From: Myxococcaceae bacterium
Lineage (GTDB): Bacteria; Myxococcota; Myxococcia; Myxococcales; Myxococcaceae
Reading direction: 5' to 3'
NCBI GenBank assembly: GCA_052143535.1
Contig: JBKQSS010000075.1
Coordinates: forward strand, 40,588 to 104,587
DNA: 64,000 nt
The position numbers were made by a program, and so were the translations under genes. The notes below the pieces were generated by a model. The model was not told the origin of the DNA. It saw only the letters and a program-made list of their open reading frames with translations, and made no database searches. Numbering within the stretch: the stretch's first letter is position 1; each line of letters starts with the position of its first letter. This document shows, one piece after another, positions 13,651 to 34,350 of the stretch.

Positions 13651-13751
13651 CTGCACTGCGTTTCGGCTTCCCGGCGCCGTGCTTGACGCCGCCGCCTCGA
13701 GTCGACTCTAAGGCCCCGGGGACCGTCCGCCGCCCCAAAGGGAGCTCGGCC

Positions 13752-15725: not shown

Positions 15726-15733
15726 GGAAGCTC

Positions 15734-17464: not shown

Positions 17465-18438
17465 GCGGTGCGGGGCGGCTCAGAAGCGCCCGGAACGCTG
17501 GCTGTGCGCGCCGCACGTCGGTGGGCCCACAGAGCCCCCAGCGTCCCCACAATTCCGCGCCGGAAAAAGAGCACCGTCACCACGAAAACCAGCCCCGTCA
17601 CCAGGCCGGTGGCGGCGGTGGAGCGCGAGAGCGCGTCCCGCAGCAGGACGGTGACGGCGCTTCCCACCAGCGGCCCGAGGAAAGTGCCGGTGCCGCCGAG
17701 CAAGGTCGTCATCACCACTTGCCCGCTGGTCGTCCAGGAGAGCACGTCGAGCGAGACCACGCCGTGCGCGACAACGAAAAGCGCCCCGGCCAGCCCGGAC
17801 AGGGTAGCGGACAGCAAGAAGGCCAAGAGCTTGTGGGCCCACGTCGCGTAACCCACGCTTTGGGCACGGGTGTCGTTGTCGCGGATGGCGCGCAGCGCCG
17901 CGCCAAACGGGGAGTGGATGGTGCGGAAGGCCACCAGCGCACCGAGCGTCGAAACCACCAGCCCGAACCAGTAGGCGTGCAACGAATTGGAGAAGTCCAA
18001 GCCGAGCAGTGGGGGCCGGGGGATGTTGGGCATCCCACTCTCTCCGCCCGTTACCTCGTCCCATTGCTTGGCGATGAAGTCGACCATCTGCCCGAAGGCG
18101 AGCGTAATCATTGAGAAGTAGATGCCCACACTTCGGATGGACAGAAAGCCGATGGGGAGGGCGAGGACAAATGCGGCCGCCGTCCCCCCGAGCATGGCCA
18201 ACGGGACCCCGACTCCCAGGTGGAGAAGCAGCCACCCGGTGACGTAGGCGCTGGTGCCCCAAAAGGCTGCGTGCCCGAAGGACAGAAGGCCCACCTGGCC
18301 GAATACTAGGTCGAAGGCGAGCGCGAAGAGGCCGAGACAGAGGATGTCCAGGGCCACCACCGGGTAGACAACGAAGGGCAGCCCGACGAGCACCACCAGC
18401 GCCGCCGCTCCGGTGAGCAACCAGCTGCGGCCGCTCAT
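17461..18438 (-). CDS. livM: branched-chain amino acid ABC transporter permease (LivM type)
   Basis: ATG 18438 overlaps the livH stop (ATGA). The upstream part of track ORF 17461..18852 is an artefact that overlaps livH. Confidence 0.85.
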   Translation of the reverse strand: MSGRSWLLTGAAALVVLVGLPFVVYPVVALDILCLGLFALAFDLVFGQVGLLSFGHAAFWGTSAYVTGWLLLHLGVGVPLAMLGGTAAAFVLALPIGFLSIRSVGIYFSMITLAFGQMVDFIAKQWDEVTGGESGMPNIPRPPLLGLDFSNSLHAYWFGLVVSTLGALVAFRTIHSPFGAALRAIRDNDTRAQSVGYATWAHKLLAFLLSATLSGLAGALFVVAHGVVSLDVLSWTTSGQVVMTTLLGGTGTFLGPLVGSAVTVLLRDALSRSTAATGLVTGLVFVVTVLFFRRGIVGTLGALWAHRRAARTASVPGASEPPRTA

Positions 18439-19310
18439 CGTCCGCCCTCCGGCAATCCGAAGAGTCCAGTCGGCCGCACCAGGAGCACGCCGGCCATGAG
18501 GATGAAGACCAGCGTGTTGGCGATGGGCGGGTAGAACGCCGAGCCAATGGCGATCAGGACGCCAACGGTGAAGCCGGTGAGGATGGAGCCGAGGATGCTT
18601 CCCAAGCCCCCGATGACGACGACTGCAAAGGTGGTGACGATGAGTTCGGAGCCCATCAGCGGGTCGACGCTGTAGATGGGCGCGGCGAGCACCCCAGCCA
18701 GGCCGGCCAGGGCCGTGCCGAAGCCGAAGACGGCGGTCACCCAGAGGGAGACGTCGACGCCGAAGCTGCGCGTGACGGTGGGGTTCTCGGTGCAGGCCCG
18801 CACCACCGCCCCGAGTCGGGTCCGCTCGATGAGGAAGAAGGTGACGCCGCACACCGCCACCGAGGCGCCGATGACGAAGAGTCGGTAGGTGGGAAACAGG
18901 ACGAAGCCGAGGTTGGTGACCCCGGCGAGTTGGGAGGGGCCCGAATACGGGGCGCCGCTAATGCCGTAGAAGAGCCGGACGCTGTCCTGAATGACCAGCG
19001 TCAAGCCAAAGGTGAGCAAGAGGTTGTAGGCGGGCGGCAGGTTGTAGAGCCGCCGTAACATGGTTCGCTCGATGAGGACCCCGAAGAGGCCGAGGAGCAC
19101 CGGGGCGATGACCAGCGATGGCCAGAAGCCCAGGCCGAAGCGCTCACCGAGGCTGTAGGCGGTGAAGGCTCCAAGCATGTACATCGCGCCGTGAGCGAAG
19201 TTCACGATGCGCAACATTCCGAAGATGACCGCCAGGCCGAGGGAGAGCAAAGCGTAGAAGGCGCCGTTCACCAGCCCGTTGAAAATCTGGATGACCAGCA
19301 AGCGTCCCAT
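18435..19310 (-). CDS. livH: branched-chain amino acid ABC transporter permease (LivH type)
   Basis: MGRLLVIQIFNGLVNGAFYALLSLGLAVIFGMLRIVNFAHG is the classic LivH N-terminus. Confidence 0.9.
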   Translation of the reverse strand: MGRLLVIQIFNGLVNGAFYALLSLGLAVIFGMLRIVNFAHGAMYMLGAFTAYSLGERFGLGFWPSLVIAPVLLGLFGVLIERTMLRRLYNLPPAYNLLLTFGLTLVIQDSVRLFYGISGAPYSGPSQLAGVTNLGFVLFPTYRLFVIGASVAVCGVTFFLIERTRLGAVVRACTENPTVTRSFGVDVSLWVTAVFGFGTALAGLAGVLAAPIYSVDPLMGSELIVTTFAVVVIGGLGSILGSILTGFTVGVLIAIGSAFYPPIANTLVFILMAGVLLVRPTGLFGLPEGGR

Positions 19311-19348
19311 GTGCCCGGTATTCCTCCCTCGGCCGCTGCCTTACGTCG

Positions 19349-20554
19349 CTATTTGCCCATCTGGCACTTTGACTCGGAGAGCGGCATGAAGGCCTGAGCT
19401 GCCGGTGTCTTGGAGATGACCTTGAAGTAGTCGCGCTCCTCCTTGGCCTCACTCTTCGGCTTCACCTCTACCTGGAGCACGTCGAGGATGACGCGGTGGT
19501 CCTGCGGCCGGATGCTGGCGTTGCGAGCGAAGAAGTCGCTGAACTGATGGCCCTCGAGCGCCGCGCGCACCTTGTCCGCGTTGTCCGACTTCGCCCGGGA
19601 GACCGCCTCAAGGTACGTGGTGACGGCGGAGTAGACGCCGCCGTGCACCCAGGAGGGTTTCTTTCCGAAGGCCTTCTGGAAGTCTGTGCTCCAGGCCTTG
19701 CTTGGCTGGTCGAGGTTCCAGAACCAGGGAACGGTGACGACCGCGCCCGCGTACGCATCTTGCCCAAGCGAGTCGATGTCCGTCTCGAAGAGCAGCCCGA
19801 TGGCCAGGCCGATGCCGTCCTTCTTCAGAGCGAACTCGTTGTACTGCTTCACGACATTGACCAGGTCCGCCCCGGCGTGCATCGTGCCGAAGACCTGGGG
19901 CTTCAAGGATTGCGCTTTGAGCAGGTAGCTGGAGAAGTCGGTGTTTGGAAACGGAGTTGCTTCGCTGGGGGCAACCATTTTCCCGCCGGCGGCCTCCACC
20001 GCTTTGCGCATCTGCGCATCTAGGTTCTGCCCGAACTTGTAGTTCGGGTAGATGATGAACCAGGTTTTCCCGCCGCGCTTGGTGACCGCAGTTCCAGTCC
20101 CATTGGCCAGCATCCAGTTGTCGTAGGCGTAGTGGAACGTGTGGATGTTGCACTGCTCGTTGGTGAGCTCGGTGGTGCCTGCGCCAACGTCGATGAGCAG
20201 GGCATTGCGCGTCTTCACCACGCCCGCCACGGCCAGGGCACAGGAGGAAGTGGGCACGTCGAAGATGGCGTCTACGCCATCTCGCTCAATCATCTCCAGG
20301 GCTTTGTTGGTGGCGACGTCCGGCTTGCTCTGGTGGTCGACGCCAATCACCTCGACCTTGCCCGCGTATTCGGGGTGCTTCTTCATGAAGGCCGCGGCGG
20401 CCAGCTCTGCTGCTTTGACCGAGCCGGGCCCAGCCAGCGCCGAGTAGACGCCATTCATGTCAGTCAGCACGCCGATTTTGACTTTGTTGCCGGAGAGCTG
20501 CTGTGCCCCAGCTGGAACGGCGAGCAGCAGTGCTGCCAGCAGTGTCGTTTTCAT
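19349..20554 (-). CDS. ABC transporter substrate-binding protein (LivK/type I PBP family)
   Basis: ATG 20554 gives the signal peptide MKTTLLAALLLAVPAGAQQ. It has the KIGVLTDMNGVYS motif. Confidence 0.85.
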   Translation of the reverse strand: MKTTLLAALLLAVPAGAQQLSGNKVKIGVLTDMNGVYSALAGPGSVKAAELAAAAFMKKHPEYAGKVEVIGVDHQSKPDVATNKALEMIERDGVDAIFDVPTSSCALAVAGVVKTRNALLIDVGAGTTELTNEQCNIHTFHYAYDNWMLANGTGTAVTKRGGKTWFIIYPNYKFGQNLDAQMRKAVEAAGGKMVAPSEATPFPNTDFSSYLLKAQSLKPQVFGTMHAGADLVNVVKQYNEFALKKDGIGLAIGLLFETDIDSLGQDAYAGAVVTVPWFWNLDQPSKAWSTDFQKAFGKKPSWVHGGVYSAVTTYLEAVSRAKSDNADKVRAALEGHQFSDFFARNASIRPQDHRVILDVLQVEVKPKSEAKEERDYFKVISKTPAAQAFMPLSESKCQMGK

Positions 20555-20612
20555 CAGGTTCTCCTTGCAGGTGCGGGACAACGCCCTCGGGCGTTGGTTT
20601 TCCCACGGGGGA

Positions 20613-21305
20613 TTAGACACTCAAGTAGTCGAGCAACTCCTTTTCGCGGGTGCGAACCTGGTCGGTCGTCAACGTCTCCACCGAGCGCCCATCCACCACG
20701 AGCACGTGGCGGTCGGCCACCTTCAAAGCGAAGCGAAGGTTTTGCTCGACGAGCACCACAGCCAGCCCTTGCGCCTTGAGCTCGAGCACCATCTGGGCGA
20801 TGCGCTGGACGATGACCGGTGCAAGCCCCTCGGACGGCTCGTCGAGCAAGAGTAGACGGGGCGCTGCTCGAAGCACTCGGACAATGGCCAGCATCTGCTG
20901 CTCGCCGCCGGACATCTTCGTGCCGGGGAAGGCGCCGCGCTCCTTGAGGATGGGGAACGTCTGGTAGATGCGCCCCAGCGTCCAGCCTCCGGGCCGCAGC
21001 GCCGGGGGTAGCTCGAGGTTCTCGCGCACGGTGAGCGTCGAGAAAATGGCGCGCTCCTCGGGGACCCAGGCAACGCCCAGCCGAGCAATGCGGTCTGAGG
21101 TCAACCTTGAAATGTCCTGGCCGTCGAAGGTGATGGTCCCACGCCGGTCCGGAAGTACGCCCATTAGCGACTTGAGGGTGGTGCTCTTGCCAGCCCCGTT
21201 ACGGCCGATGAGGCTCACCACCTCGCCCGGCTTCACCGCCAGCGAGACTCCGTGAAGCACGTGGCTCTTGCCATAGAAGGCCTGAAGGTCGGAAACCACC
21301 AGCAT
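20613..21305 (-). CDS. livF: ABC transporter ATP-binding protein (LivF type)
   Basis: Walker A GRNGAGKST, MSGGEQQMLAIVRVL and LLLDEPSEGLAP. Start at ATG 21305. Confidence 0.9.
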   Translation of the reverse strand: MLVVSDLQAFYGKSHVLHGVSLAVKPGEVVSLIGRNGAGKSTTLKSLMGVLPDRRGTITFDGQDISRLTSDRIARLGVAWVPEERAIFSTLTVRENLELPPALRPGGWTLGRIYQTFPILKERGAFPGTKMSGGEQQMLAIVRVLRAAPRLLLLDEPSEGLAPVIVQRIAQMVLELKAQGLAVVLVEQNLRFALKVADRHVLVVDGRSVETLTTDQVRTREKELLDYLSV

Positions 21306-21309
21306 CGGG

Positions 21310-22059
21310 TCAGCCAACCTCCTCACCGAGGTAGGCCTCGATGACGTGCGGATTTCGCCGCACCTCATCGTAGGTGCCCTGCGCGAGGATGCGGCCGCGC
21401 TGGAGCACGGTGATGCGGTCCGCCAGCTGCGCCACAACCCCCATGTTGTGCTCCACCAGCACCAAGGTGCGGCCTTTCGCCACCTTCTTGCCGAGGGCCA
21501 CCATCCGCTGGACGTCGTCGGTGCCCATTCCGGAGGTGGGCTCGTCGAGCAGCAGCACCCGGGGCTCCTGGGTCAGCGAGATGCCAATCTCGAGGTTGCG
21601 CTTCTCGCCGTGGGACAGCGACGAGGCCGAACGGTGGGCCAGCCCCAACTCGTGGACCACCTCCAAAATCTGCCGAGCCCGGGGCTGGTACTTCAGCAGC
21701 ACCTTCACACTTTCCCAGAACCGCCAGTGGTGTGGCGTCTTGGACTGGATGGCAACCAGAAGGTTTTCCTGAACCGAGAGGGTGTCGAAGACCGAGGAGA
21801 TTTGGAACGAGCGGGACAGTCCCCGGCGGACAATTTTATGGGGAGCGACCCGGGTGATGTCCTCGCCGAAAAGGAAGACCTGGCCGGCGGTCGGCGTCAG
21901 AAACCCGGAGAGGAGGTTGAAGAGTGTCGTCTTCCCGGCGCCATTGGGCCCGATGATGGCGTGGGTCTCACCCTCCTCGATGACCAAGTCCACCCCGTCC
22001 ACCGCGGAAAAGCCATGAAAGGCTTTGGAAAGAGCTCGAGCCTCGAGAGCTGCAGGCAT
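21310..22059 (-). CDS. livG: ABC transporter ATP-binding protein (LivG type)
   Basis: Walker A GPNGAGKTT, LSHGEKRNLEIGISL and LLLDEPTSGMG. Start at ATG 22059. Confidence 0.9.
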   Translation of the reverse strand: MPAALEARALSKAFHGFSAVDGVDLVIEEGETHAIIGPNGAGKTTLFNLLSGFLTPTAGQVFLFGEDITRVAPHKIVRRGLSRSFQISSVFDTLSVQENLLVAIQSKTPHHWRFWESVKVLLKYQPRARQILEVVHELGLAHRSASSLSHGEKRNLEIGISLTQEPRVLLLDEPTSGMGTDDVQRMVALGKKVAKGRTLVLVEHNMGVVAQLADRITVLQRGRILAQGTYDEVRRNPHVIEAYLGEEVG

Positions 22060-22208
22060 AGGTTCGGCGCTTTGCGCGAGGGGCCGACGGCAGATGGACC
22101 TTAGCTGTGGCCTCGTGAAGGTCAACGAGGTTTAGCCACTCCCGGAGCGTATGCTCTCGTGACGCGCCGATGAGGCCCCTTTGGCCTTCGGAGAGAGGAA
22201 ATGACGCT

Positions 22209-22991
22209 ATGCGTATGAAGGGCCGTGTGGCACTGGTGACGGGGGCAGCAAGTGGCATTGGTCGCGCAATCTCCGAGGCTTTTTCCCGCGAGGGCGCCCA
22301 GGTGGGCGTGGCAGACATCAACGCTGCGGGAGCAACAGCTGTGGCGGACTCCATCGCCCACACCGGCGGCAGCGCCGTCGCCGTCCCCATGGACGTCACC
22401 GATGAGGCCCAAGTGAACGAGGGCGTCGACGCGCTGGTGGCGCGCTTCGGCACGGTGGACGTGCTGGTAAGCAACGCTGGTGTTCAGCACATCGCCGCGG
22501 TGGTCGACTGCAGCTTCGAGGCGTGGCGCAGGCTGCTCGCCATTCACCTCGACGGAGCCTTCCTCACCACCCGGGCCTGCATGCGCCGGATGGTGGCCTC
22601 CGGGAAGGGCGGCTGTCTTCTTTACATGGGCAGCGTGCACTCAGTGGAGGCCTCGCCGCTCAAGGCTCCGTACATCGCTGCCAAGCACGGCATCCTCGGC
22701 CTGGCCCGCGCAGTGGCGAAAGAGGGGGCGCCGCACGGCATTTGGAGCAACGTCATCGCGCCGGGCTTTGTGCGCACCCCACTGGTGGAGAGACAGATTC
22801 CAGAGCAAGCCCGCGACCTCGGCATCAGCGAGCAGGAGGTGGTGAAGAACGTCATGCTCAGAAATACGGTCGACGGCGAGTTCACCACGCTCGATGACGT
22901 CGCGCAGCTGGCAGTCTTCCTCGCGTCCTTTCCGAGTCGAGCGCTCACGGGCCAGTCGGTGGTGGTGAGTCACGGCTGGCATATGCAATGA
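22209..22991 (+). CDS. bdhA: 3-hydroxybutyrate dehydrogenase (SDR family)
   Basis: [11 protein letters not shown] Rossmann motif, NAG, and YxxxK in APYIAAKHG. The tail ...[31 protein letters not shown] is BdhA-like, and the gene is in PHA context. Confidence 0.8.
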
Positions 22992-23205
22992 CCTCTCGCC
23001 AAGACTAAGTCGTTCGGCCCGATACCTGAACGAAGTCGACCCCTGAACTTCCCGACACAGGCCTAAGGGCGACGTATTTCCCCATGAGAAAGCCAACCGG
23101 AGCTGCCCCCGGGTGCAAACCAATGGCGGCTTAGAGCGGCGCGCCGTGGCATTCGAAGGGTTGTCCTTACAGGGCGTGACCGCGGTCAAGATTGGCGCGA
23201 ACGCA

Positions 23206-24060
23206 CTACCCGCGCTTCGGCTTCTCGTGGGTCTCGACAAAGGTGAAGCCGAAACGGCCCTTCACGCACAGGTTCCCAGCGGTCACGCCGGAATCACTCG
23301 GCGACGTCACGCGGACAATTTTATTGTCTTGGACTCGCAGCGAGAGCGTACAGCCCACTCCGCAATATGGGCAGATGGTGTCTGTGACCGTTTGTTCCGA
23401 CTCTCGCCACTGACCAGCCTCGCGAAGGTCGTGCTCGGCCTTGAAGACCAGGGCACCCGTCGGACACGCGTTCACGCAGTTGCCACAAAAGACGCAAGCT
23501 GAGTCGGGCAGCGCCACCTCGTGCTCAGTGGCGATGCGTGCGTCGAAGCCGCGTCCGGCTACGGCGATAGCAAAGGTGTTTTGCGCATCGGTGCCGCAGG
23601 CCTCGACGCACTTATAGCAAAGCATGCAACGTCCGTAGTCGCGGACGAAGAGCTCATTGTCCACTGTTACTGGCTGGGCGACGCTCTCCGCCTTCGGTCC
23701 AAACCGCGCAGGGCGAGCTTCATACCGGGCTGCATATGCTGAGAACGCCGACGAGCGAGACATGTCGACAGAGGAACCGAGGAGCTCAATCACCAGTTTG
23801 CGGCTAAGCCGAACGCGGGGACTGTCGGTCAGGACTTTCATGCCCGGCTCGGCAAGGCGCGAGCAGGCTGGGACAAGGACGCGTGAGCCCTCGAGCTCGA
23901 CAACACAAATCCGGCACACATTGACCGGAGTCAGGTTCTCGGCCCAGCACAGCGTCGGCGTATCGATGCCAACGGATTGGCATGCCCCGAGCAACGTCGT
24001 CCCTTCTCGGACCGTCACGGGCTTCCCGTCGACAGAGAGCTCCACCGGCCGGGGCATCAT
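23206..24060 (-). CDS. fdsA: formate dehydrogenase alpha subunit, N-terminal Fe-S portion only (284 aa)
   Basis: It has a 2Fe-2S motif (LCWAENLTPVNVCRICVVELEG...PAC), two ferredoxin-type 4Fe-4S motifs (CMLCYKCVEACG, CVFCGNCVNACPTG) and the Mo-domain cluster CPYCGVGC...LCVKGRFGFTFVETHE. It ends KPKRG-stop where the Mo domain normally continues. The start overlaps the upstream stop (ATGA). Confidence 0.85.
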   Translation of the reverse strand: MMPRPVELSVDGKPVTVREGTTLLGACQSVGIDTPTLCWAENLTPVNVCRICVVELEGSRVLVPACSRLAEPGMKVLTDSPRVRLSRKLVIELLGSSVDMSRSSAFSAYAARYEARPARFGPKAESVAQPVTVDNELFVRDYGRCMLCYKCVEACGTDAQNTFAIAVAGRGFDARIATEHEVALPDSACVFCGNCVNACPTGALVFKAEHDLREAGQWRESEQTVTDTICPYCGVGCTLSLRVQDNKIVRVTSPSDSGVTAGNLCVKGRFGFTFVETHEKPKRG

Positions 24061-25895
24061 CCGGTGGGCCCTCGATGCGGCATCAGCTTGGCCAGGGCGG
24101 ATTGAATGGCCAGCGTCGCTGTCTGACCGAGCCCACAAATGGAGGCATCCTTCATCGCCTGAGCGAGCTCGGTCAGCAACTGGAGCTCAGCGTCCGTCGA
24201 CCCTAAGGGGATGCCCGCGGCAAGTCGCGTCAGCAGTTCCTCCTGACGCACGGTGCCGACACGACAAGGGACGCACTGCCCGCAGGACTCGTCGCGAAAG
24301 AAGGCCGCTAGGCGACGTAGGATTGGAGCAAGGGGCAATTCATCGTCCAGAACGAACACCACTCCGGATCCCAGTGAGGCCCCGATCTTGCGCGTGTCCT
24401 CGAAGGACAGCGGGACCGACAGCTCCTCAGGCGAGAGAAAGGTACTCGCCGCGCCACCAAGAAGGACGGCCTGAATTCGCCGACCCTTCGCAACGCCGCC
24501 CGCAAGTTCGATCAACGCGTCCAACCGAGTTCCGAAGGGGACTTCGTAAACGCCGGGTCGTGCGATTCGCCCGCAGACGCAAAATAGCTTCGTCCCGGGT
24601 GAGGCGGCCGTGCCGACGGACACGTACGAGGCGGCACCGTCGCGTACAATGTCGAGCACTGCGACCAACGTCTCCACGTTATTCACCGAGGTTGGTTTGC
24701 GGAAGAGACCTGAGTCCACCGGAAACGGCGGCTTATTCCGCGGCTCGCCGCGGAAACCTTCCAGAGAGTTGAAAAGAGCCGTCTCCTCGCCACAGATGTA
24801 AGCGCCGGCGCCACGGCGCAGCTCGATGTCGAAGGTAAAACCGCTTCCTAGAATCTCGGCGCCCAGCCAGTGCGTTGTACGAAGGAACTCAATGGCGTGC
24901 TCCAGTCGAGCGGCTGCCACGGGATATTCACCGCGGATGTACAGGTAGCCCCGTTCGGACCCGGTGGCAAAACCGGCGATGGTCATCGCCTCTAGGACCG
25001 CGAACGGGTCACTCTCCATCAGTACTCGATCCTTGAAGGTGCCCGGCTCAGACTCGTCAGCGTTGCACACGACATAGTGTGGACGTTCGGGAGCCCGCGC
25101 GACGGCCTCCCACTTGCGTCCGGTGGGAAAGGCGGCGCCGCCTCGGCCGACGAGCTTCGCTTCCGTCACTTCGCGAACGACGCCTTCTCGACCAAGCTCG
25201 AGTGCGCGCCGCAGCGCACGCTGCCCACCGTGCGCCTGGTAGGAATCCAGACTCAAGGGATCAACGAGGCCAGCTCGCACGAGCAACTTGCGAGGTCCTG
25301 TACCCCCGATGAATGCTGGCCTCCAGCGGGGGGGAGCGCCGCCCAGGGCAGCTTCGATCTGGGCAGTGGTCGCGCGACCAAACGCGACTTCCAACGGCGC
25401 CGCACCTGCGACGGACACCATTGCCGCAGGGGCTTGTTCGCAAAGTCCGAGGCAGGGGCTCCTTGCCCAAAGGGCGCTGGAATTCCCGGTGGTGTCCGGT
25501 GCGTCCGCTCGGTGCCGCGCGATCAATGGAGGTCCGAACTTGGCGTTGAGCTCCGCACACAGCTGCTCTGCCCCTGCGGCCTGGCAGACGATGTCGTCGC
25601 AGACATGAGCGAAGGCGCTCGAGCGCTCGGAGAGCGAAAACATCGCGTAGAAGCTCGCGACGCCGTAGGCCTCAGCCGGAGGAATTGCCAAACGGCGGCA
25701 GACGTAACCGAGTCCGCCAGGACTCACCCACCCGATCCGCGATTGGAGCGCATGCAGGCACGGCAGAAGGAGTGTCCGTTGGATCTTGGCGACGCTGGCC
25801 GGGGTCGGGATGTCAATCGGCAGCGGGCCGAGCACGGCATCAATCGCTGTGCTCTCAGGACCAGTCGGGGCTTCCGCGATGGCACGCAAGTCCAA
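24057..25895 (-). CDS. fdsB: NAD-linked formate dehydrogenase diaphorase: NuoE-like + NuoF-like fusion
   Basis: It has a thioredoxin-like 2Fe-2S part (…HVCDDIVC…SPCLGLCEQAP), an FMN/NADH part (GRGGAAFPTGRKW, YVVCNADESEPGTFKD) and a 4Fe-4S motif ESCGQCVPCR. The TTG start at 25895 is uncertain. Confidence 0.88.
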   Translation of the reverse strand: MDLRAIAEAPTGPESTAIDAVLGPLPIDIPTPASVAKIQRTLLLPCLHALQSRIGWVSPGGLGYVCRRLAIPPAEAYGVASFYAMFSLSERSSAFAHVCDDIVCQAAGAEQLCAELNAKFGPPLIARHRADAPDTTGNSSALWARSPCLGLCEQAPAAMVSVAGAAPLEVAFGRATTAQIEAALGGAPPRWRPAFIGGTGPRKLLVRAGLVDPLSLDSYQAHGGQRALRRALELGREGVVREVTEAKLVGRGGAAFPTGRKWEAVARAPERPHYVVCNADESEPGTFKDRVLMESDPFAVLEAMTIAGFATGSERGYLYIRGEYPVAAARLEHAIEFLRTTHWLGAEILGSGFTFDIELRRGAGAYICGEETALFNSLEGFRGEPRNKPPFPVDSGLFRKPTSVNNVETLVAVLDIVRDGAASYVSVGTAASPGTKLFCVCGRIARPGVYEVPFGTRLDALIELAGGVAKGRRIQAVLLGGAASTFLSPEELSVPLSFEDTRKIGASLGSGVVFVLDDELPLAPILRRLAAFFRDESCGQCVPCRVGTVRQEELLTRLAAGIPLGSTDAELQLLTELAQAMKDASICGLGQTATLAIQSALAKLMPHRGPTG

Positions 25896-25934
25896 GTTCG
25901 CGAAACTCTATCAGAGGCTTAGGGGAGGAGCCGC

Positions 25935-27860
25935 TTATGACACCGCATGAGCGGGCGGGCGAGCTTGCCATGCCCTAGACAGCTTCTCGACGCGAACCGC
26001 CGAAGCTTTGAACTCCGCGGTCCCCGATTTTGGGTCGGTCGCGTTGATGGTCAGGGTGTTGGTGTCGACGCTGTCCGGGAAATGGACCGTCATGAAGACC
26101 AGACCGGGCCGCAGGCCGGCGATGATGCGCACGGGGACTTCGACTGATCCTCGACGCGATACGATGCGCACCCATTCCCCGTCGCTGACATCGAGCGCAC
26201 GAGCATCCTCCGGACTCAGGTCGAGCGTCTCACCCCGAGCGTGTGGCCAAGCGAATCCTCCGCTCTGGACACCAGTATTGTATGACTCGAGACGCCTTCC
26301 GGTCGTGAGGCGCAAGGGAAATGACGCGTCGAGACCGTCCACCGGAGGGACCTGCTCCGCTGGCAGAAACGGCGCACGGGGACCGACCATTGGGTCGCTC
26401 CAGAGTCTCGCATGTAGGAACGGTGTCCCCGGGTGCTGCTCGTCAGGGCACGGCCATTGGATTCCGTCGAGTGCCTCGATGCGGGCGTAGCTCATCCCGG
26501 CGTGCATCGGGCTCAGCGCGCGAACCTCGTTCCAGATTGCTTCCGGATTCGATGAGCCCAAGTCGTACCCAAGGCGCCGGGAAAGGTCGGCCAGGATGAC
26601 GATGTCGTCGCGCGCTTGCCCAGGCGGCGTGAGGGCACGGCGGCATCGCTGAACACGTCGCTCGCTGTTGGTCACTGTGCCTTCGGACTCGCACCAGCTC
26701 GCCGAGGCCGGCAAGACGACGTCTGCCATCACCGCGGTCTTGGTCATGACGATGTCCTGAACCAGCAAGAACTCCAGCCCCTTCAACAGATTCATGGAGT
26801 GGTGTGAGTCGGCCTCGGATTGCGCCGGGTTCTCCCCGAGGACGTACAGTCCAGTCATCGCCTTGGTTTCCATGGCCTCGAACATCTCGGTGAGGTTCCA
26901 ACCCTTCTTTGGCGGGACGGGGCGGCCCCAGCATTGGTCGTAGCGGGCGCGCACCACGGGGTTTTCGACATCTTGAAACCCGGCCAGCTTGTTCGGGAGG
27001 GCCCCCATGTCTCCACCGCCTTGGACGTTGTTCTGCCCCCGCAGCGGGTTGAGTCCCGAGCCCCAGCGCCCGACATGGCCGGTGAGCAATCCAAGATTGA
27101 TGAGCGAACACACATTATCGACGGCGTTGTGGTGTTCTGTGATTCCAAGTGTCCAGCAGATGATGGCCTTGTCGGCTCGCGCGTATTCGCGAGCTACGCG
27201 TTGAATCAGCTCAGGAGAAACCTTTGTCTCTTGCGAGACTCTCGCCAGGTCGTACCTCTGAACGGTTTCTGAGTAGGCCTCGAAGCCCTCCGTCGCCCGG
27301 GCGATGAACGAGCGGTGCTCGAGGCCCTCTGCCAAAATGCAGCGGGCCATTCCATTGGCGAGGGTAATGTCGGTGCCCACATCGAGTTGAAGCCAACCGT
27401 CCGCCCATTCCGCGGAACTGGTGCGGCGCGGGTCCATCACAAAAAGCTTTCCCCCCCGTCGAATGGCCTTCAGGACGTGGTGGAAAAAAATCGGATGCGT
27501 TTCTCTGGCATTGCTGCCCCAGAGGATCATCACATCGGCTTCCTCAACTTCCTTGTAGGAACTCGTTCCGCCGCCTGCTCCGAAGACCGCCGCCAGACCG
27601 GCGACGCTTGGCGCGTGTCAAGTTCTGTTACAGCTGTCGATGTTGTTACTACCCACCGCGGCGCGCATGAACTTCTGCGCAGCAAAATTCACTTCGTTGG
27701 TGGCTTTGGAGCAGCTGAACATTCCAAACGAGTTCGCGCCGTGCCTCTCGACGACGCCGCGAATTCCTGCCGTCGCACGCTCGAGGGCCTGCTCCCAGCT
27801 GGCCGGGCGTAACTCCCCGTTCTCGCGGACGAGGGGTTCCGTGATTCGAGGCGGCGACAC
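25935..27860 (-). CDS. fdsA: formate dehydrogenase alpha subunit, catalytic Mo/W-bisPGD portion, selenocysteine-containing (Sec = codon 81, TGA at 27618..27620)
   Basis: Track ORFs 27618..27860 and 25935..27533 share a frame. The read-through gives ...NNIDSCNRT-U-HAPSVAGLAAVFG...MILWGSNARETHPIFFHH...GQNNVQGG..., which is the FdhF/FdsA catalytic core. Total 641 codons. Confidence 0.85.
27585..27617 (-). promoter_or_regulatory. bacterial SECIS-like hairpin directly 3' of the UGA
   Basis: The mRNA reads UGA CAC GCG CCA AGC GUC GCC GGU CUG GCG GCG GUC. The stem GUCGCC/GGCGGC (27605..27600 with 27594..27589) closes a GGUCU apical loop. Confidence 0.7.
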
Positions 27861-27965
27861 GACAGGAAGTCTATCCCCCCGCTCGTTGAGTTCAAGGCCG
27901 GTCCTCTAAGGGTACGTTTTGCCCCTGGGAGAGCCCCCGCGGCGGGAGGCGTCGGCATCAGCCTC

Positions 27966-27986
27966 AGCGCGTCGCTTCGACGCGCT
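27966..27986 (-). terminator. hairpin after the class-V PLP enzyme gene, upstream of the FDH operon
   Basis: AGCGCGTCG-ctt-CGACGCGCT forms a 9-bp perfect stem 26 nt past the stop at 28013. There is no U-tract. Confidence 0.45.
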
Positions 27987-28012
27987 CGTCACCTTACGTT
28001 TCCGCAGCACTC

Positions 28013-29497
28013 CTAGAACTGGAAGAAGCGCTCCATCGGCACCCCGTCATCTTCGCGGACGTGCCGAAACTCGTTGGTGGTCGACGAGTAGCGATAGTCG
28101 GCCCCCCAGGTCTTTGCATGCTCGACACAGCTGCGGACCGCTGCGGCCAGGGCGCGCACCTCCTCGGTGGTGGTGGTGGGATGGAGCGAGATGCGCACCC
28201 AGCCGGGCTTGTCTGAGAGATCCCCGAGGTCGATTTTGTCGGTGATGCGGCTCGAGCGATTCGGATCGACGTGCAGCAAATAGTGCCCGTAAGTCCCCGC
28301 GCACGAGCAGCCGCCGCGCACTTGGACGCCGAAGCGGTCGTTGAGCAGCTTCACCAAAAGGTTGTAGTGCAGGTCTTCGACATAAAAAGAGACGATGGCC
28401 AGGCGGTCGTCGACATGGTCGGCCAAAAGGTGCAGTCGCGGAATGCTTCGAAGCTTGCCGAGCAACAACTGCAGTAGCTCATGTTCGCGCTCGAGCATTC
28501 GAGCCGTTCCCATGGCCTCCTTGAGCTGCACCGCGAGCGCCGCCTTGATGGTTTGCAGAAAGCCGGGCGTTCCACCGTCCTCGCGCGCTTCGATGTTGTC
28601 CACGAAACTGTGCTGATGCCAGGGGTTGGTCCAGTTCACGGTGCCGCCGCCAGGCTGGTCCGGGACTCGATTGTGGTAGAGCTGCGAGTTGAAGACGAGC
28701 ACGCCGGAGCTTCCCGGGCCGCCGAGGAACTTGTGCGGCGAGAAATAGACGCCGTCGAGTCGGTCCAAAGGGTCCGCCGGGTGCATGTCGATGTCGACGT
28801 ACGGAGCCGACGCTGCATAGTCGATGAAGCAGTAGCCGCCGTGCTCGTGCATCACTCGGGCCAGCCGATGGACGGGCGTCCTAATGCCAGTGACATTCGA
28901 GCAGTCGGTGAATGCCCCGAGCTTCAACGGCCGCTCGCGATAGCGTGCGAGCGTTTCTGCGAGTTGGTCCACGCCCACCAGGCCGAGTGCGTCTGGCGGG
29001 ATGACCTCCACGTCGGCAACTGTTTCCAGCCAGGACGTCTGGTTGGAGTGGTGCTCCATGTGCGTCACGAAGACCACCGGCCGTAGCTCCGCGGGAAGAC
29101 GGCAAAACGGCGCGAGCTGCTCCGGCAGCCGAAGGCCAAGCATTCGCTGGAGCTTGTTCACCACCGCCGTCATCCCCGAGCCCTGGGTGATGATGACGTC
29201 GTCGGGTCCGGCGTGGACGTGCTCCTTGAGAATTGTCTGCGCGTGTCGGTAGGCGCGGGTCATCGCCACACCAGTGGTGCTCGACTCAGAATGGGTGTTG
29301 CCCACCAGTGGCCCAAACCGCTCGACGAGGCAGCGCTCGATGGGCGCATAGAGGCGACCGCTGGCCGTCCAATCCGCGTACAAGAGCTGCTGCTCGCCAC
29401 AGGGCCCAGTGAAACAGTGGCGCAAGCCGACGATGCCCTCGCGAAATTTCGCGAAGAAGCCAGCCAGGCGCTCTGTTTCCGCGAGGGGGAGTTGCAC
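28013..29497 (-). CDS. aminotransferase class V-fold PLP-dependent enzyme (cysteine desulfurase / selenocysteine lyase-like)
   Basis: 494 aa with the PLP-lysine context VYFSPHKFLGGPGSSGVL, plus THMEHHSNQTSW. Confidence 0.7.
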   Translation of the reverse strand: MQLPLAETERLAGFFAKFREGIVGLRHCFTGPCGEQQLLYADWTASGRLYAPIERCLVERFGPLVGNTHSESSTTGVAMTRAYRHAQTILKEHVHAGPDDVIITQGSGMTAVVNKLQRMLGLRLPEQLAPFCRLPAELRPVVFVTHMEHHSNQTSWLETVADVEVIPPDALGLVGVDQLAETLARYRERPLKLGAFTDCSNVTGIRTPVHRLARVMHEHGGYCFIDYAASAPYVDIDMHPADPLDRLDGVYFSPHKFLGGPGSSGVLVFNSQLYHNRVPDQPGGGTVNWTNPWHQHSFVDNIEAREDGGTPGFLQTIKAALAVQLKEAMGTARMLEREHELLQLLLGKLRSIPRLHLLADHVDDRLAIVSFYVEDLHYNLLVKLLNDRFGVQVRGGCSCAGTYGHYLLHVDPNRSSRITDKIDLGDLSDKPGWVRISLHPTTTTEEVRALAAAVRSCVEHAKTWGADYRYSSTTNEFRHVREDDGVPMERFFQF

Positions 29498-29862
29498 AGA
29501 GAAGGAGTCTCACGCTCTTCCGCGTCCGTGCAAGGCCCGCCGCGTGCGTGCGCTCAAGGCGTTTTCCCTAGCCCAACCCGGGGGGGCACTTTGCACCAGC
29601 CGTGAAGACGCCCGCGGGCCAAAAGGCCTCCTCAACCCTCCGCTGCTCGTCTGCCCGTGACCCCCAAGCCCAGAGGACTCGGCCTCGACAAGCGCCGCGG
29701 GAGACGGAAGACCTCCGAGCCTGGCCCGGCTGTGCGTGACGCTCCGCCGGCCTTCTGCGCAAAGACAGTTGGCGCCGCCGCGGGCGGCGATGCCGCAACA
29801 AGCACTTGAGGTTAGGGCCGTGCGTTTGCTGAGCCAGGACGGGCGTGGTACGCACGTTGGTT

Positions 29863-30177
29863 ATGGCGCGAGTCACTATTGAAGACTGCGGTCCCTACGC
29901 GGAGAACCGCTTCGCGCTTTCCATTCTTGCCGTCCGGCGCACCAAGCAGCTGCTCTCTGGCGCCACCTGCACGGTGCCCTCCGGCCGAGACAAGGCCACC
30001 GTCACGGCGCTCAGAGAGATTGCGGCGGGCAACGTGAAATTCGAACAAGACCTCCGCAACGTGCTGGGGCACCACGCGCCCGTTCCCGCTGGCGCGGCCT
30101 CCGCGACACCGCCCGCCCCCACGCTCGAGACGGTGGCCGAGGCGCTCCGCAGACAGCCCTTCGTCCCGACGCGGTAA
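29863..30177 (+). CDS. rpoZ: DNA-directed RNA polymerase subunit omega
   Basis: MARVTIEDCGPYAENRFALSILAVRRTKQLLSG is the canonical RpoZ N-terminus. Confidence 0.9.
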   Translation: MARVTIEDCGPYAENRFALSILAVRRTKQLLSGATCTVPSGRDKATVTALREIAAGNVKFEQDLRNVLGHHAPVPAGAASATPPAPTLETVAEALRRQPFVPTR

Positions 30178-30360
30178 GGCGCTTCCAGCCTCCGCCGGAG
30201 GTGCTGCGCTCGGGCCAGCCTCCGGCGAGCCCGTCAGTCGCTGTTTTCTGAGGGACGGACGTGCTGCGCCGCGTGGGGCTGGGACGGCTGGGAGTCCACA
30301 GCTGTGTCGGGGTCCAGCGGCACCCACTTCCGAGGGCGGTGGGCACCATGGCAAGTAGCC

Positions 30361-30780
30361 ATGCTAGTGCACGCCCATGCGACCGCCAGCGCGCAGGGCC
30401 CGCTCGTGCTGGTGGTGGATGACCAACCTTTTTTTCGGGCCTTCCTCCGAAACGCCTTGGCGCGCCGCGGACACACCGTCCTGACGGCCGACGACGCGGA
30501 CCAGGCCGAACGCCTTGTCGAGGAGGTTGGGCCTCCCTTGGTGCTCATTCTCGACCTGGTGTTGTGCGGAGTGAGCGGTCCGCAGCTCCTCCACAAGCTG
30601 TCCCAGCGCCCGGACGCACACCGTCTGCGCTTCATTCTCGTCTCCGCCCACCCCGTCGTAGAAACGGTGGCACCGGACTCACGCTTGGTTGTCGGCCGGC
30701 TCAGCAAGCCAGTCGACCTCGAGCGGCTCGCCCAGCACCTCGAGATGGCTGGCGCCGCGCTGCGCGACTCGGAAACGTGA
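30361..30780 (+). CDS. single-domain response regulator (CheY-like receiver)
   Basis: LVLVVDDQPFFR..., acceptor-Asp context LVLILDLVL, and ...GRLSKPVDLERL. The start (30304 GTG or 30361 ATG) is uncertain. Confidence 0.7.
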   Translation: MLVHAHATASAQGPLVLVVDDQPFFRAFLRNALARRGHTVLTADDADQAERLVEEVGPPLVLILDLVLCGVSGPQLLHKLSQRPDAHRLRFILVSAHPVVETVAPDSRLVVGRLSKPVDLERLAQHLEMAGAALRDSET

Positions 30781-31545: not shown

Positions 31546-32481
31546 TCAGGCCGGCGCCATCGTGCGCTGGCCGGAGAAGTTGGCGTCTTCGGGCTGGACC
31601 CAGTCGCGGTCCGGGCCAAGGTCTATCACCACCAGCGGCGTGCCGTCATAGCGTAGGCGCCTGCCGGGATAGACGTAGGCGCGGAATATGTAGCCGAGCA
31701 TGGAGCGCTCTTGGAGCCCTGGGTGGAGCGTCGGCCGGACGCGCTCGGCATGGGCCGCAGGCAAGAGGCTCCAGTGCAGCCCCGGTTCCATATGGTGCAT
31801 GCCGTGGTAGCCGTTGTTCACCGTCAGGAAGTTCAACAGCGGGCTGATGAAGGTGCGTGAGTGGTTGACGGGGTGGTCCGGGTCGCAGCCGTCATGTTGA
31901 ATGAGGTTGATGGTCACGATGCCGAAGTTGGCGAAGAGGTGCGGCACCACCAGAAACACCAGCGCCTTGCGCCAGTCGAGCAGCAAGAGGGCACCTTTCG
32001 CCCCCCACACCACCACCGCTTCGAAGAGGTACTGGTGGTGCCACGCCGAAATTTTGCTCCCGCGCAGCTGTTTGAAGCGCGCGTTGCCCCGCAGAATGGC
32101 CGGCGACACGGCCGGAAAGAAGAAGAGCAGGTTGAGGAGGTTCCAGCGGAAGCGCACCTTGGTGGTGCGCATGACGTCCTCGCGCCTCTCGGTGTAGCGG
32201 TGGTGGGAGAGGTTGTGCCCCGGGACGTACTCGCTGATGGGGAAGCCGTAGGACAGGCTGACCCACACTTGAAAGAGCCGGTTCATCCAGCGGCGGGTGA
32301 AGACTGGGGAGTGCACGGTGTTGTGGGCGACCACCGCGCAGAGCCACGAGTTGTACGAGAGCACGGCTACCCACGCCCAGAGCAGAGGGCCCGTGGGCGC
32401 AAGAAGCCAGCCCCCGATGAAAAGGGTCGCGTAAGCGGCGAGAATTCCTAGGGTGCGTATGTCGGCTCTGTAGCGCAGCAC
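31546..32481 (-). CDS. membrane fatty acid desaturase family protein
   Basis: His boxes AHNTVH, HNLSHH and HGMHH. Paralog of 2635..3606. Confidence 0.85.
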   Translation of the reverse strand: MLRYRADIRTLGILAAYATLFIGGWLLAPTGPLLWAWVAVLSYNSWLCAVVAHNTVHSPVFTRRWMNRLFQVWVSLSYGFPISEYVPGHNLSHHRYTERREDVMRTTKVRFRWNLLNLLFFFPAVSPAILRGNARFKQLRGSKISAWHHQYLFEAVVVWGAKGALLLLDWRKALVFLVVPHLFANFGIVTINLIQHDGCDPDHPVNHSRTFISPLLNFLTVNNGYHGMHHMEPGLHWSLLPAAHAERVRPTLHPGLQERSMLGYIFRAYVYPGRRLRYDGTPLVVIDLGPDRDWVQPEDANFSGQRTMAPA

Positions 32482-32531: not shown

Positions 32532-33275
32532 CTAACGCCGTTTTGTCACTCCGGCCACCGAAGTAACGCCATCCGCTCGTGGCGGCATCAAACGGTCCAG
32601 GACTGCGCGAGCCACGGACGGTGAAAACAGCATCCCCAGATGGCCAACGTCTGGGACATGCACCAGGTCGTCCCCGGCGGCGAAAACACGCGGGATGATG
32701 ATGTTGTCTGAGCCCGCGACGATAGAGGTGTAATGCACGGTGCGGGAGTGTCTCTCGCTGTTGGCGAGCCGTTCCAGGACCGCGGAGTCCGGACGTAGCT
32801 CATGGCCCACGCGGGATGAAAGCCAGTAAGCGTTATAGGTGCCTCGGTGGGGCGTTCCAAGCGTGATGCAGCGGTCCACCCGCCGCGCGCCGCCCAGCTG
32901 CTCGAGGTAAACGCGGGCCACCAGCCCTCCGAGGCTGTGGCAGAGGAGGTCGATTCGCCCCCCCCGAACGGCGTGGCGTAGGTAGTCCCGGAGGGCGCGG
33001 GCCGCGTGCTCGATGCCGGCCGAAGCCCGGTAGTCAAAGGCCAAAATCTGCCGCATGCCGTGGGCGCGCAAGTAGGCGCTCAGTGGGAGGAAGCTGCTGC
33101 GGTTGGCGCCATAGCCGTGGACCAGCACCACGGTACGCTGCTCGCGTCGTCGCGGCGTCCGCTTGCGCTGGGCCCGCCAGCCGAAAGGGTGAAGGAGTGA
33201 AAAAGCGGCCAGCGCCGCCACCTCCCGCGCCACCAGCACCCTGGCAGGCCGGGCCGAGGCGGGGAAGTCGCGCAT
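32532..33275 (-). CDS. alpha/beta hydrolase (lipase/esterase-like)
   Basis: ATG 33275 begins 247 aa containing VVLVHGYGANRSSF and the nucleophile elbow CHSLGG. The upstream part of track ORF 32532..33938 overlaps the desaturase gene and is rejected. Confidence 0.75.
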   Translation of the reverse strand: MRDFPASARPARVLVAREVAALAAFSLLHPFGWRAQRKRTPRRREQRTVVLVHGYGANRSSFLPLSAYLRAHGMRQILAFDYRASAGIEHAARALRDYLRHAVRGGRIDLLCHSLGGLVARVYLEQLGGARRVDRCITLGTPHRGTYNAYWLSSRVGHELRPDSAVLERLANSERHSRTVHYTSIVAGSDNIIIPRVFAAGDDLVHVPDVGHLGMLFSPSVARAVLDRLMPPRADGVTSVAGVTKRR

Positions 33276-34048
33276 CACGCCGGCGCCTCCTCCGGGGCCG
33301 CCCGCAGGGCGGTGTTGGTCGCAGGGACGAAGTGGATGATGCGCAGCCAGGCGAGTAGCCGCATGACTTGGTAGGCAGGGTCGAGCTCGAACCAGCGGAC
33401 AGCGAAGTTGGGCCGCGTCGGGAACTGGTGGTGGTTGTTCTGGAAGAGCTCGCCCATGGTGACGAATTCCAGCCGGAGGGTGTTCTTGCTGTCGTCCTCG
33501 GTGTCGAAATTCCGGTAGCCGTAACGGTGGCCGCACCAGTTGACGATGGCGCCGTGAATGGGGCCCATCGTCCAGTGGACCGGCAAGAGAAGAAACCACC
33601 ACAGGGAGGGGGCGAAGTGGGCGTAGAAAAGGACGAACAGGAGCGACAAGGCAACCCGCGTGCTCCAGCGCTGCGAGAGTCGGTCGATGAACGGCCACTC
33701 CGGCGTTCCGCCGAGAAACCGCGCTTCGGGCTCTCCGCGCCGGTAAGCGTAGACGTCGTATTGGTGCTTGGTGTGCCACATCATGCTCGCCACGTTGGAG
33801 AAGAAGCGGGGCGAGTGCGGGTCCTGCTCGGTGTCCGCAAAAGTGTGGTGCTGACGGTGCAAGATGGCGTACGCGCGCGGCACCAAAAACGACGGCCCCT
33901 GCGCCACGAAGGCGAGCAAGTAGAAGAAGCGCTCCCATGCGGGGCTCATGGTGAACATCCGGTGGGCGCCGTACCGGTGGAGGAAAAACGTCTGGGCGAA
34001 GATGGAGAGCCCCCAGTGGGCCGCGAGGAGACAGAGGATGGCCGTCAT
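33275..34048 (-). CDS. acyl-CoA (delta-9-type) desaturase
   Basis: His boxes HRYGAHR, HRQHH and NNHHQFP. The start overlaps the stop of the RHH gene (ATGA). Confidence 0.8.
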   Translation of the reverse strand: MTAILCLLAAHWGLSIFAQTFFLHRYGAHRMFTMSPAWERFFYLLAFVAQGPSFLVPRAYAILHRQHHTFADTEQDPHSPRFFSNVASMMWHTKHQYDVYAYRRGEPEARFLGGTPEWPFIDRLSQRWSTRVALSLLFVLFYAHFAPSLWWFLLLPVHWTMGPIHGAIVNWCGHRYGYRNFDTEDDSKNTLRLEFVTMGELFQNNHHQFPTRPNFAVRWFELDPAYQVMRLLAWLRIIHFVPATNTALRAAPEEAPA

Positions 34049-34350
34049 GACTCTCGGTCCGCCTTCCGCGACCCCGCAGGGAGCCGGCCCACCAGCGTTC
34101 GCCGAAGACTGTCTCGCCCCTGCGCCAAGCGCGCGGCGCCGGCCCGCAGCCCCTGCTCGACGCGCTCCCCGGCCTCGTCCGCTGCGGCCAAAGCGTCCTC
34201 GAGGATGGTGCGGATGAGGTTAGAGACGGGAATTCGCAGCTCCTCGGCGAAGCGCTTCAACTCTGCCTCGAGGGGGGCTGGGACGCGGGTGTGGATGACG
34301 CGCTCCTTTCGCGCTCTGGGCGCGGCGGCGCGTGAAACGGGCCTCTGCAT
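34045..34350 (-). CDS. ribbon-helix-helix-like small protein, putative operon regulator
   Basis: KERVIHTRVPAPLEAELKRFAEELRIPVSNLIRTILEDAL fits a beta-strand/helix/helix RHH pattern. It is the first gene of the desaturase/hydrolase operon. Confidence 0.5.
   Translation of the reverse strand: MQRPVSRAAAPRARKERVIHTRVPAPLEAELKRFAEELRIPVSNLIRTILEDALAAADEAGERVEQGLRAGAARLAQGRDSLRRTLVGRLPAGSRKADRES

Follow-up and report, generated by a model that had tools for sequence, protein, structure and literature searches.

Our analysis of a 64-kb stretch of DNA from a Myxococcaceae bacterium (hereafter the window) revealed that the alpha subunit of a predicted formate dehydrogenase is encoded there by two separate genes, one for its catalytic half and one for its Fe-S half, which flank the gene of the diaphorase in permuted order. 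The three genes, all on the minus strand and within 23.2-27.9 kb of the window, very probably specify a cytoplasmic, soluble, NAD(P)+-linked enzyme of three polypeptides, with selenocysteine (Sec) and a molybdenum or tungsten bis(pyranopterin guanine dinucleotide) (bisPGD) cofactor. They are the following:

25935..27860, minus strand: catalytic half of the formate dehydrogenase alpha subunit, 641 codons, GTG start (list of open reading frames (ORFs), translation, Pfam and TIGR01591)
24057..25895, minus strand: diaphorase, a NuoE-NuoF fusion of 612 aa, TTG start (ORF list, Pfam and profile matches)
23206..24060, minus strand: Fe-S half of the alpha subunit, 284 aa, ATG start (Pfam and alignments)

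The catalytic reading frame (27860..25935; N-terminal sequence MSPPRITEPLVRENGELRPASWEQAL) starts at a GTG encoding the protein start MSPPRITEPLVRENG... and contains the domains Molybdopterin (residues 5-428, with a match that begins at profile position 1) and Molydop_binding (residues 516-619), without an Fe4S4 domain. It is listed as two ORFs of 80 and 532 aa because of an in-frame TGA at 27620..27618. The diaphorase joins a NuoE-like thioredoxin-type [2Fe-2S] domain to a NuoF-like module with flavin mononucleotide (FMN), NAD(H), SLBB and [4Fe-4S] parts, and its Pfam matches are 2Fe-2S_thioredx, Complex1_51K, SLBB and NADH_4Fe-4S, with no others. The Fe-S half has Fer2_4, two Fer4 and Molybdop_Fe4S4 domains (the latter at residues 250-301 in a 310-aa ORF version), and ends in ...LCVKGRFGFTFVETHEKPKRG-stop (KPKRG-stop at 23206), 13 residues past the GRFGF motif. 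Its ATG overlaps the TGA of the diaphorase gene as ATGA (24060..24057). The 310-aa version, initiated at a TTG further upstream, was rejected, since in relatives the protein starts at the ATG overlapping the end of the diaphorase gene.

Alignments to solved structures locate the cut. In PDB sequence searches, residues 23-305 of R. capsulatus FdsA are matched by the Fe-S protein (E = 8e-44) and residues 308-934 by the catalytic protein, which also matches residues 59-689 of E. coli FdhH. FdhH residues 6-53, the domain of the proximal cluster FS0, correspond to the last 60 aa of the Fe-S half. The Fe-S half also aligns to residues 67-340 of Fdh1A (E = 1e-37) and the catalytic half to residues 372-984. 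This places the cut precisely at the boundary of FS0 and the first bisPGD domain, with nothing lost or duplicated there. Among the family models, TIGR01591 (formate dehydrogenase subunit alpha) fits the catalytic half best (positions 52-672, 621 bits, E = 1.9e-186), and its positions 1-52 match the Fe-S half. The score is slightly below the NCBI trusted cut-off of 666 bits because the first 51 profile positions lie on the Fe-S half. A match divided in this way is expected if the chain is cut behind FS0, and accounts for the generic names that these proteins have in databases. Split inteins or trans-splicing were considered and rejected, as the tails outside the homologous cores have only ~4-6 residues.

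Much of this layout had been anticipated. The original prediction gave the order catalytic part, diaphorase, Fe-S part (A_C - GB - A_N) on the minus strand, which the ORFs, translations and Pfam matches bear out, and correctly described the 284-aa Fe-S half with its 2Fe-2S cluster, two ferredoxin-type 4Fe-4S clusters, CPYCGVGC cluster and KPKRG end, as well as the ATGA coupling at 24057..24060. It placed the break between FVETHE and RITEPLV, which maps between FdsA 305 and 308, and added the halves up to 641 + 284 = 925 aa without loss or duplication at the junction, in agreement with our alignments. The length of 641 codons for the catalytic part was right, but the in-frame TGA, a predicted Sec codon, and the Sec insertion sequence (SECIS) that follows it had been overlooked.

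The residues that bind the clusters and form the active site are highly conserved. Exactly 16 Cys are invariant across the 83 distinct Fe-S halves that we compared: the ligands of the [2Fe-2S] cluster (C38, C49, C52, C66), of the two ferredoxin-type [4Fe-4S] clusters (C145, C148, C151, C155 and C189, C192, C195, C199) and of the FS0 [4Fe-4S] cluster (C230, C233, C237, C265). The last FS0 ligand is followed by a conserved Lys (CVKG), which corresponds to that of the Cys42-x-Lys44 motif of FdhH, in FdhH numbering, where it relays electrons from the pterin to FS0. The His/Cys3 [4Fe-4S] cluster A4 (Pfam NADH-G_4Fe-4S_3) is absent: there is no PF10588 match and the region of the motif is deleted relative to FdsA. 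The 83 Fe-S halves have no conserved His or Cys beyond the 16 ligands, and A4 is missing from the whole split family. Its loss is unrelated to the break.

The catalytic half combines the Molybdopterin and Molydop_binding domains with the motifs CNRT-U-HAPS and PLRGQNNVQG of formate dehydrogenase catalytic subunits. Its active-site residues are Sec81-His82 and Arg274 (in PLRGQNNVQG), and the Sec/Cys-His dyad and the Arg of P-x-RGQNNVQG are kept in 67 of 69 loci. Formate dehydrogenases account for all of the top solved relatives (E = 1e-150 to 1e-116), the nearest by sequence being FdhF of the hydrogen-dependent CO2 reductase (HDCR) and chain 7bkb_D of a methanogen Fdh, not FdsA. The NuoG-like Fe-S extension that feeds a NuoE/NuoF-like FMN diaphorase is present, though on a separate chain, and FS0 (Molybdop_Fe4S4) is on this Fe-S protein instead of sharing a chain with the bisPGD domains. 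In place of a single alpha chain of ~900-1000 aa, two genes flank the diaphorase in the window and in 80 related loci. The traits of electron-bifurcating Hyl/Bfu-type enzymes were not found, as there are no extra ferredoxin domains on the diaphorase and no FS0 on the catalytic chain. A diaphorase without such extra domains points to the non-bifurcating type, like FdsBG and Fdh1B.

The TGA of the catalytic frame is at the position of FdhH Sec140, with a His next to it, and is followed by a hairpin:

27618..27620, minus strand: in-frame UGA predicted to be read as selenocysteine (motif SCNRT-U-HAPSVAG; comparison with homologues)
27589..27605, minus strand: putative apical SECIS hairpin GUCGCC-GGUCU-GGCGGC, with a 6-bp stem (comparative analysis)

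The hairpin begins 12 nt past the UGA, and its GGUCU loop lies 18 nt downstream of the UGA. The TGA is in the same column in 67 of the 69 related loci, with a conserved SECIS, and a Cys replaces Sec in Herbidospora and in 74 actinomycete proteins. Among 65 distinct Sec-type sequences the stem is paired in 98-100% of the cases, with the exchanges U-A/U-G, C-G/U-G and one C-G to U-A, and the GGUCU loop is invariant. Conservation at third-codon positions is 0.91-1.0 inside the hairpin versus 0.34-0.83 just downstream. In the two Cys-type genomes found among the loci, three of the six pairs are broken and the loop is altered. The locus has what is expected of a bacterial selenoprotein, i.e., an in-frame UGA at the Cys position of homologues and a conserved hairpin loop, and the comparative case for regarding the hairpin after the UGA as a putative SECIS is strong. 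The enzyme is predicted to be Sec-dependent in most lineages, including aerobic soil groups.

These observations suggest how the enzyme might work. The catalytic polypeptide would oxidize formate (or reduce CO2) at Sec81/His82/Arg274, and electrons would leave via the pterin to the FS0 [4Fe-4S] cluster and the adjacent Lys, both of which the separate Fe-S polypeptide would provide in trans with its C-terminal domain of 55 residues. The next carriers would be the two ferredoxin-type [4Fe-4S] clusters and then the [2Fe-2S] cluster, all on the Fe-S polypeptide, before a final transfer to the NuoF-like [4Fe-4S] cluster and FMN of the NuoE-NuoF fusion reduces NAD(P)+. The Fe-S gene is presumably coupled in translation to the diaphorase gene through the ATGA, and the catalytic gene would be translated independently, with its UGA recoded by the SECIS.

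The split is not restricted to the window. We surveyed one genome per GTDB species and obtained 80 loci; counts of gene order include only those with enough flank. Split loci occur in at least seven phyla, among Myxococcota, Planctomycetota, Acidobacteriota, Actinomycetota (Acidimicrobiia, including 'Ca. Aldehydirespirator', as well as Herbidospora and Streptomyces), Alphaproteobacteria (Xanthobacteraceae, Afipia, Hyphomicrobium), Betaproteobacteria (Comamonas badia) and Chloroflexota, and they include closed chromosomes and isolates. The same-strand order of catalytic gene, NuoE-NuoF fusion and Fe-S half was found in all but three of the informative loci, and about 65 of 70 have the three genes side by side. 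The break point is constant in all related loci: Fe-S proteins end within ~25 residues after the motif GRFG(F/W)x(F/Y)V, catalytic proteins start a few residues ahead of R(L/I)TxP(L/M)VR, and the catalytic half is without FS0 in every member. Stand-alone Fe-S halves of 275-330 aa make up at least 120 clusters at 90% identity (65-91% identity, same domains, without Molybdopterin). Many cultured Actinomycetota (Saccharopolyspora, Nonomuraea, Nocardiopsis, Amycolatopsis, Streptomyces, Kutzneria, Thermopolyspora and Herbidospora) have stand-alone catalytic halves of ~630-650 aa without an Fe4S4 domain, all of which begin M-x-Y-T-R-L-T-x-P-L-V-R and have an active-site Cys. A protein search of the plasmid collection gave no split members, only canonical fused fdhF/nuoG-type genes with at most 38% identity. 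Around the 80 loci we looked for conserved extra neighbours (FdsD-like, fdhD, mobA) and found only lineage-specific genes. Adjacency to fdhD, which encodes a sulfurtransferase and chaperone specific to formate dehydrogenases, is restricted to Streptomyces, in whose Cys-type operon a gene of the FdhD-NarQ family directly follows the Fe-S half (9666-10550 in loci L088/L089). A 'Ca. Aldehydirespiratoraceae' chromosome (locus L080) has a second, partial match to the Fe-S half (53% identity, query residues 79-276) at 10250-10858, which is 3.4 kb downstream of its operon.

The split could be thought to result from a mis-assembly, or from a recent rearrangement of a normal fdsA in this genome that left one or both halves as pseudogene remnants. 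In all characterized NAD-dependent enzymes (FdsA, Fdh1A) the large subunit is a single chain, the catalytic ORF is apparently interrupted by a stop codon, and neither fdhD nor sel genes are found nearby. Yet, two independent assemblies, obtained from other sequencing runs, reproduce the locus at 99.97-99.98% identity and remain colinear, without gaps, over 22935..30530, thus spanning both junctions. Furthermore, the identical break point and the same order recur across phyla, the cluster ligands are invariant, and the 'stop' is best read as a Sec codon with a conserved SECIS. Because of the independent assemblies and of the conservation across phyla, mis-assembly, recent rearrangement and decay are excluded, and we grant this explanation virtually no probability. 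The original prediction of a functional fission at a domain boundary, as opposed to decay, is upheld by the conserved break point and order, the 16 invariant Cys, the conserved active site and the two assemblies. It had also allowed for a recent or assembly-level event, which does not fit an architecture that is ancient and widespread and a locus reproduced in two other assemblies, and for a contiguous fdsA in relatives, which instead carry the same split at the same break point.

Two other explanations concern what the genes do. The NuoE-NuoF fusion and the Fe-S protein could form a general HoxFU-like NAD(P)H platform that serves several catalytic partners, in which case the molybdenum or tungsten subunit would be one exchangeable client, or would use another redox partner. 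This would fit the scores of the Fe-S half against HoxU, NuoG and [FeFe]-hydrogenase N-terminal models, the separation of the catalytic gene, or its absence within the flank, in some Myxococcota, and the closer relation of the catalytic half to HDCR FdhF and 7bkb_D than to FdsA. But the FS0 domain and the Lys of CxKG on the Fe-S half are sensible only if docked on a bisPGD subunit that lacks them, as the catalytic half does in every member, and the adjacency of the genes in most informative loci also speaks against a general platform, which we regard as improbable. Even less probable is a substrate other than formate or CO2, as in an assimilatory nitrate-reductase-like or other bisPGD oxidoreductase. 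The TIGR01591 score is just below the trusted cut-off, NasC models match too, and the database names ('molybdopterin oxidoreductase family protein', 'YjgC') are generic. However, the 51 profile positions carried by the Fe-S half account for the shortfall, the Sec/Cys-His dyad and the Arg of RGQNNVQG are conserved and diagnostic of formate dehydrogenases, the best solved relatives all belong to these enzymes, and fdhD is adjacent in Streptomyces.

Several observations weigh against our reading of the locus as a three-piece Sec-dependent formate dehydrogenase operon. An Rfam scan of 22-30 kb (E <= 10) gave no SECIS or credible RNA family, only matches at chance level, and the folding energy of the SECIS region as a single sequence is not below that of shuffles (z = 0.26). 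As neither detects the element, the case for it rests on the comparative analysis. There is no selA/B/D or tRNA-Sec in the window, where sel genes are absent among the scanned ORFs and the only tRNA is a tRNA-Ala; nor does the window contain fdhD. The Shine-Dalgarno-like GGGGGGA is rather distant, 13 nt from the catalytic GTG. The preference for NAD or NADP, the use of molybdenum or tungsten, and the association of the three proteins are suggested by homology, and we found no biochemical or expression study of any member in the literature searched. Finally, three loci (L026, L035 and L055) have no catalytic gene within 3.6-4.1 kb upstream, and in two Archangiaceae/Myxococcales loci an opposite-strand gene stands between the catalytic gene and the NuoEF/Fe-S pair:

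L029, 1635-4175, opposite strand: inserted gene for an 846-aa repeat protein, Archangiaceae/Myxococcales genome
L014, 2756-4150, opposite strand: inserted long ORF of uncertain identity, Archangiaceae/Myxococcales genome

Such separation in a few lineages implies that co-transcription is not obligatory and that the catalytic gene can form a transcription unit of its own.

Among known systems, the closest in function would be the soluble NAD+-dependent formate dehydrogenases. FdsABG(D) of R. capsulatus and Cupriavidus necator (PDB 6TGA; PMC7171172) is likewise a bisPGD enzyme of the cytoplasm in which a NuoG-like Fe-S module is combined with an FMN diaphorase of the NuoE/NuoF type, and its on-pathway clusters A1/FS0, A2, A3 and [2Fe-2S] have counterparts here. 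In contrast, the alpha chain of the window is cut between FS0 and the first bisPGD domain, the order is A_C - EF - A_N instead of G-B-A, NuoE and NuoF are fused, Sec replaces the Cys of FdsA, and the window contains no fdsD and no fdsC/fdhD. The His-ligated A4 is also absent; in the R. capsulatus enzyme it lies at the dimer interface, outside the path from bis-MGD to FMN (PMC7171172). The window proteins are ~35-38% identical to FdsA-type proteins (P0250). The beta subunit Fdh1B of M. extorquens is a NuoE-NuoF fusion, like the diaphorase of the window. Both halves align to the alpha subunit of this tungsten, NAD-dependent enzyme (Fdh1AB or FoDH1, of Methylobacterium/Methylorubrum extorquens; PDB 7E5Z, 7VW6), but Fdh1A is a single chain of ~990 aa with an active-site Cys, and is neither split nor permuted. 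Overall, the enzyme would be functionally similar to FdsABG and Fdh1AB, without their single alpha chain and A4, and also without FS0 in cis, a trait common to the cluster-bearing bisPGD catalytic subunits.

Other enzymes are divided in different ways. Formylmethanofuran dehydrogenase has a formate-dehydrogenase-like bisPGD catalytic unit that is divided at a domain boundary and reassembled from two polypeptides, FwdB and FwdD. There, however, the cut is at the other end, before the C-terminal Molydop_binding domain, there is no permutation around a diaphorase, and the enzyme, partners and organisms differ; the Fwd model TIGR03129 matches the window protein weakly. In the SECIS of E. coli fdhF, too, the apical loop contains GGUC and is 18 nt away from the UGA. 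FdhF itself (formate dehydrogenase H; PDB 1AA6/1FDO) shares the Sec-His dyad, the Arg of RGQNNVQG and the four Cys and Lys of FS0, but is one chain that includes FS0 and passes electrons to hydrogenase-3, not to an NAD-linked diaphorase. In the electron-bifurcating formate dehydrogenases of clostridia, HylABC-FdhF2 and HytA-E-FdhA (PMC5736913, PMC6288185), the NuoG-like module (HylA) is also separate from the Sec catalytic subunit. Yet, their cut precedes FS0, such that FdhF2 keeps Molybdop_Fe4S4, and HylB has the extra ferredoxin clusters typical of bifurcating enzymes. We found no description of the present cut or of the permuted order in the literature covered, including PMC5736913, PMC9304861, PMC13397495, PMC5640789 and PMC7171172, a coverage that is incomplete and leaves most subscription journals outside.

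The origin of the split was approached through its fused relatives, searched among 1.84 billion representative proteins. Split members are at least 52% identical to the Fe-S half of the window, and the best fused proteins at most 42%. The same fused proteins are nearest to both halves (P0194, with 39% identity to the Fe-S and 47% to the catalytic half; P0191, with 39% and 43%), which is consistent with one fused ancestor. P0191 is the nearest fused relative that also lacks the motif of the His-ligated A4, and its operon is nuoE-nuoF-fdhA, with a nuoF/fdhA overlap of 4 nt. The split operon keeps the overlap between NuoEF and the Fe-S part as in P0191, suggesting that the catalytic part is what 'moved'. 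It is plausible that a tandem duplication of a P0191-like operon (E-F-A-E-F-A) was followed by loss of the outer E-F-A_N and A_C, as had been proposed; circular excision and re-integration within fdhA, or a simple fission followed by transposition, would yield the same order. The loci found contain no intermediates of the permutation. In the representative library, P0125 (1405 aa) is a single ORF in which two complete FdhA-like units follow each other head to tail, and P0127 (511 aa) joins a NuoF C-terminus to an Fe-S half; both could be real fusions or artefacts of frameshift or assembly. A tandem FdhA such as P0125 is the kind of intermediate that the duplication model needs. 'Fe-S' library proteins of ~350-370 aa were rejected as further split forms, since they are N-terminal pieces of fused Sec FdhA: P0204, P0207, P0222, P0256, P0269 and similar ones end in ...NNVD-x-CAR(T/L) just before the UGA. 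Gene callers that cut fused Sec FdhA at the UGA thus produce a systematic artefact that can mimic split genes.

Taken at face value, the split and permuted order would have arisen once, long ago, from a fused nuoE-nuoF-fdhA-type operon. Selection would have maintained it since then, with horizontal transfer as the probable means of its spread. Identities between phyla of 56-73% (70-73% between Myxococcota and Planctomycetota), and a GC content at third codon positions (GC3) of 0.70-0.73 in the three genes versus 0.79-0.85 in neighbouring ones, hint at such horizontal spread or acquisition of the operon. The fission itself might be adaptive instead of neutral, if placing the Sec module on its own polypeptide uncouples inefficient decoding of the UGA from assembly of the electron-transfer module, an idea that we consider rather doubtful. 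If it were right, a fused Sec enzyme terminated at the UGA would release an Fe-S fragment of ~360 aa able to dock on the diaphorase and poison the complex, whereas the split design would release only a harmless 80-aa peptide. FS0 would then be a detachable 'plug' coupling the NuoEF/Fe-S platform to the catalytic subunit, in the first bisPGD enzyme with a proximal cluster supplied in trans, and the operon a clean natural circular permutation at operon scale.

Two further elements border the operon:

27966..27986, minus strand: 9-bp perfect hairpin with a 3-nt loop, between an aminotransferase-V gene (stop 28013) and the catalytic gene (repeat search)
23097..23112, minus strand: terminator-like hairpin with a T-rich tail, ~95 nt past the Fe-S gene (consensus match only)

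The first, already noted in the original prediction, has no U-tract after it and is probably the end of the upstream transcription unit; the second is a candidate operon end, at a count of such sites in the region that is not above the shuffle expectation. The spacer at 22992..23205, described earlier as ~60% GC and below the local norm, has 61.2% GC, but this has no special meaning because the whole operon has lower GC3 than its neighbours. The gene immediately upstream of the operon (28013-29497, minus strand) encodes a class-V aminotransferase or SufS-like cysteine desulfurase that is weakly selenocysteine-lyase-like, an adjacency that is not conserved in relatives. Beyond it are an rpoZ-like ORF (29845-30177, plus strand), a response regulator (30304-30780, plus strand) and two fatty-acid desaturase paralogues close together (31546-32481 and 33275-34219, both minus strand). 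The region at 13584-22991 contains unrelated metabolic genes: a CoA-transferase (13584-15725), a PhaC polyhydroxyalkanoate synthase (15659-17464), a Liv-type ABC transporter (permease 18435-19340, binding protein 19349-20620, two ATPases 20613-22125) and a short-chain dehydrogenase/reductase (22170-22991).

Metal-dependent formate dehydrogenases linked to NAD are among the most promising enzymes for the biological reduction of CO2, and to our knowledge all those characterized have a single large alpha chain, usually of ~900-960 aa in an enzyme of two or three polypeptides. The arrangement described here is solid and widespread, yet it varies the architecture of an enzyme class that is already well understood and does not introduce a new principle. 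The three-piece version suggests that the proximal FS0 and its electron-relay Lys can come from a different polypeptide, and that the dimer-interface cluster A4 is dispensable. This may be of use for modular engineering and for understanding how NuoG-like modules and bisPGD subunits co-evolved with complex I and hydrogenases. The proteins currently have generic names such as '2Fe-2S iron-sulfur cluster-binding protein', 'molybdopterin oxidoreductase family protein', 'YjgC' or 'HndD', and in Sec-containing genomes the catalytic gene is annotated as two pieces, cut at the UGA. Because of such names and cuts, annotations of Myxococcota, Planctomycetota, Acidimicrobiia and many actinomycetes probably underestimate the capacity for formate oxidation. 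Finally, the locus provides a tidy example of a circular permutation at the level of the operon that became fixed across phyla.

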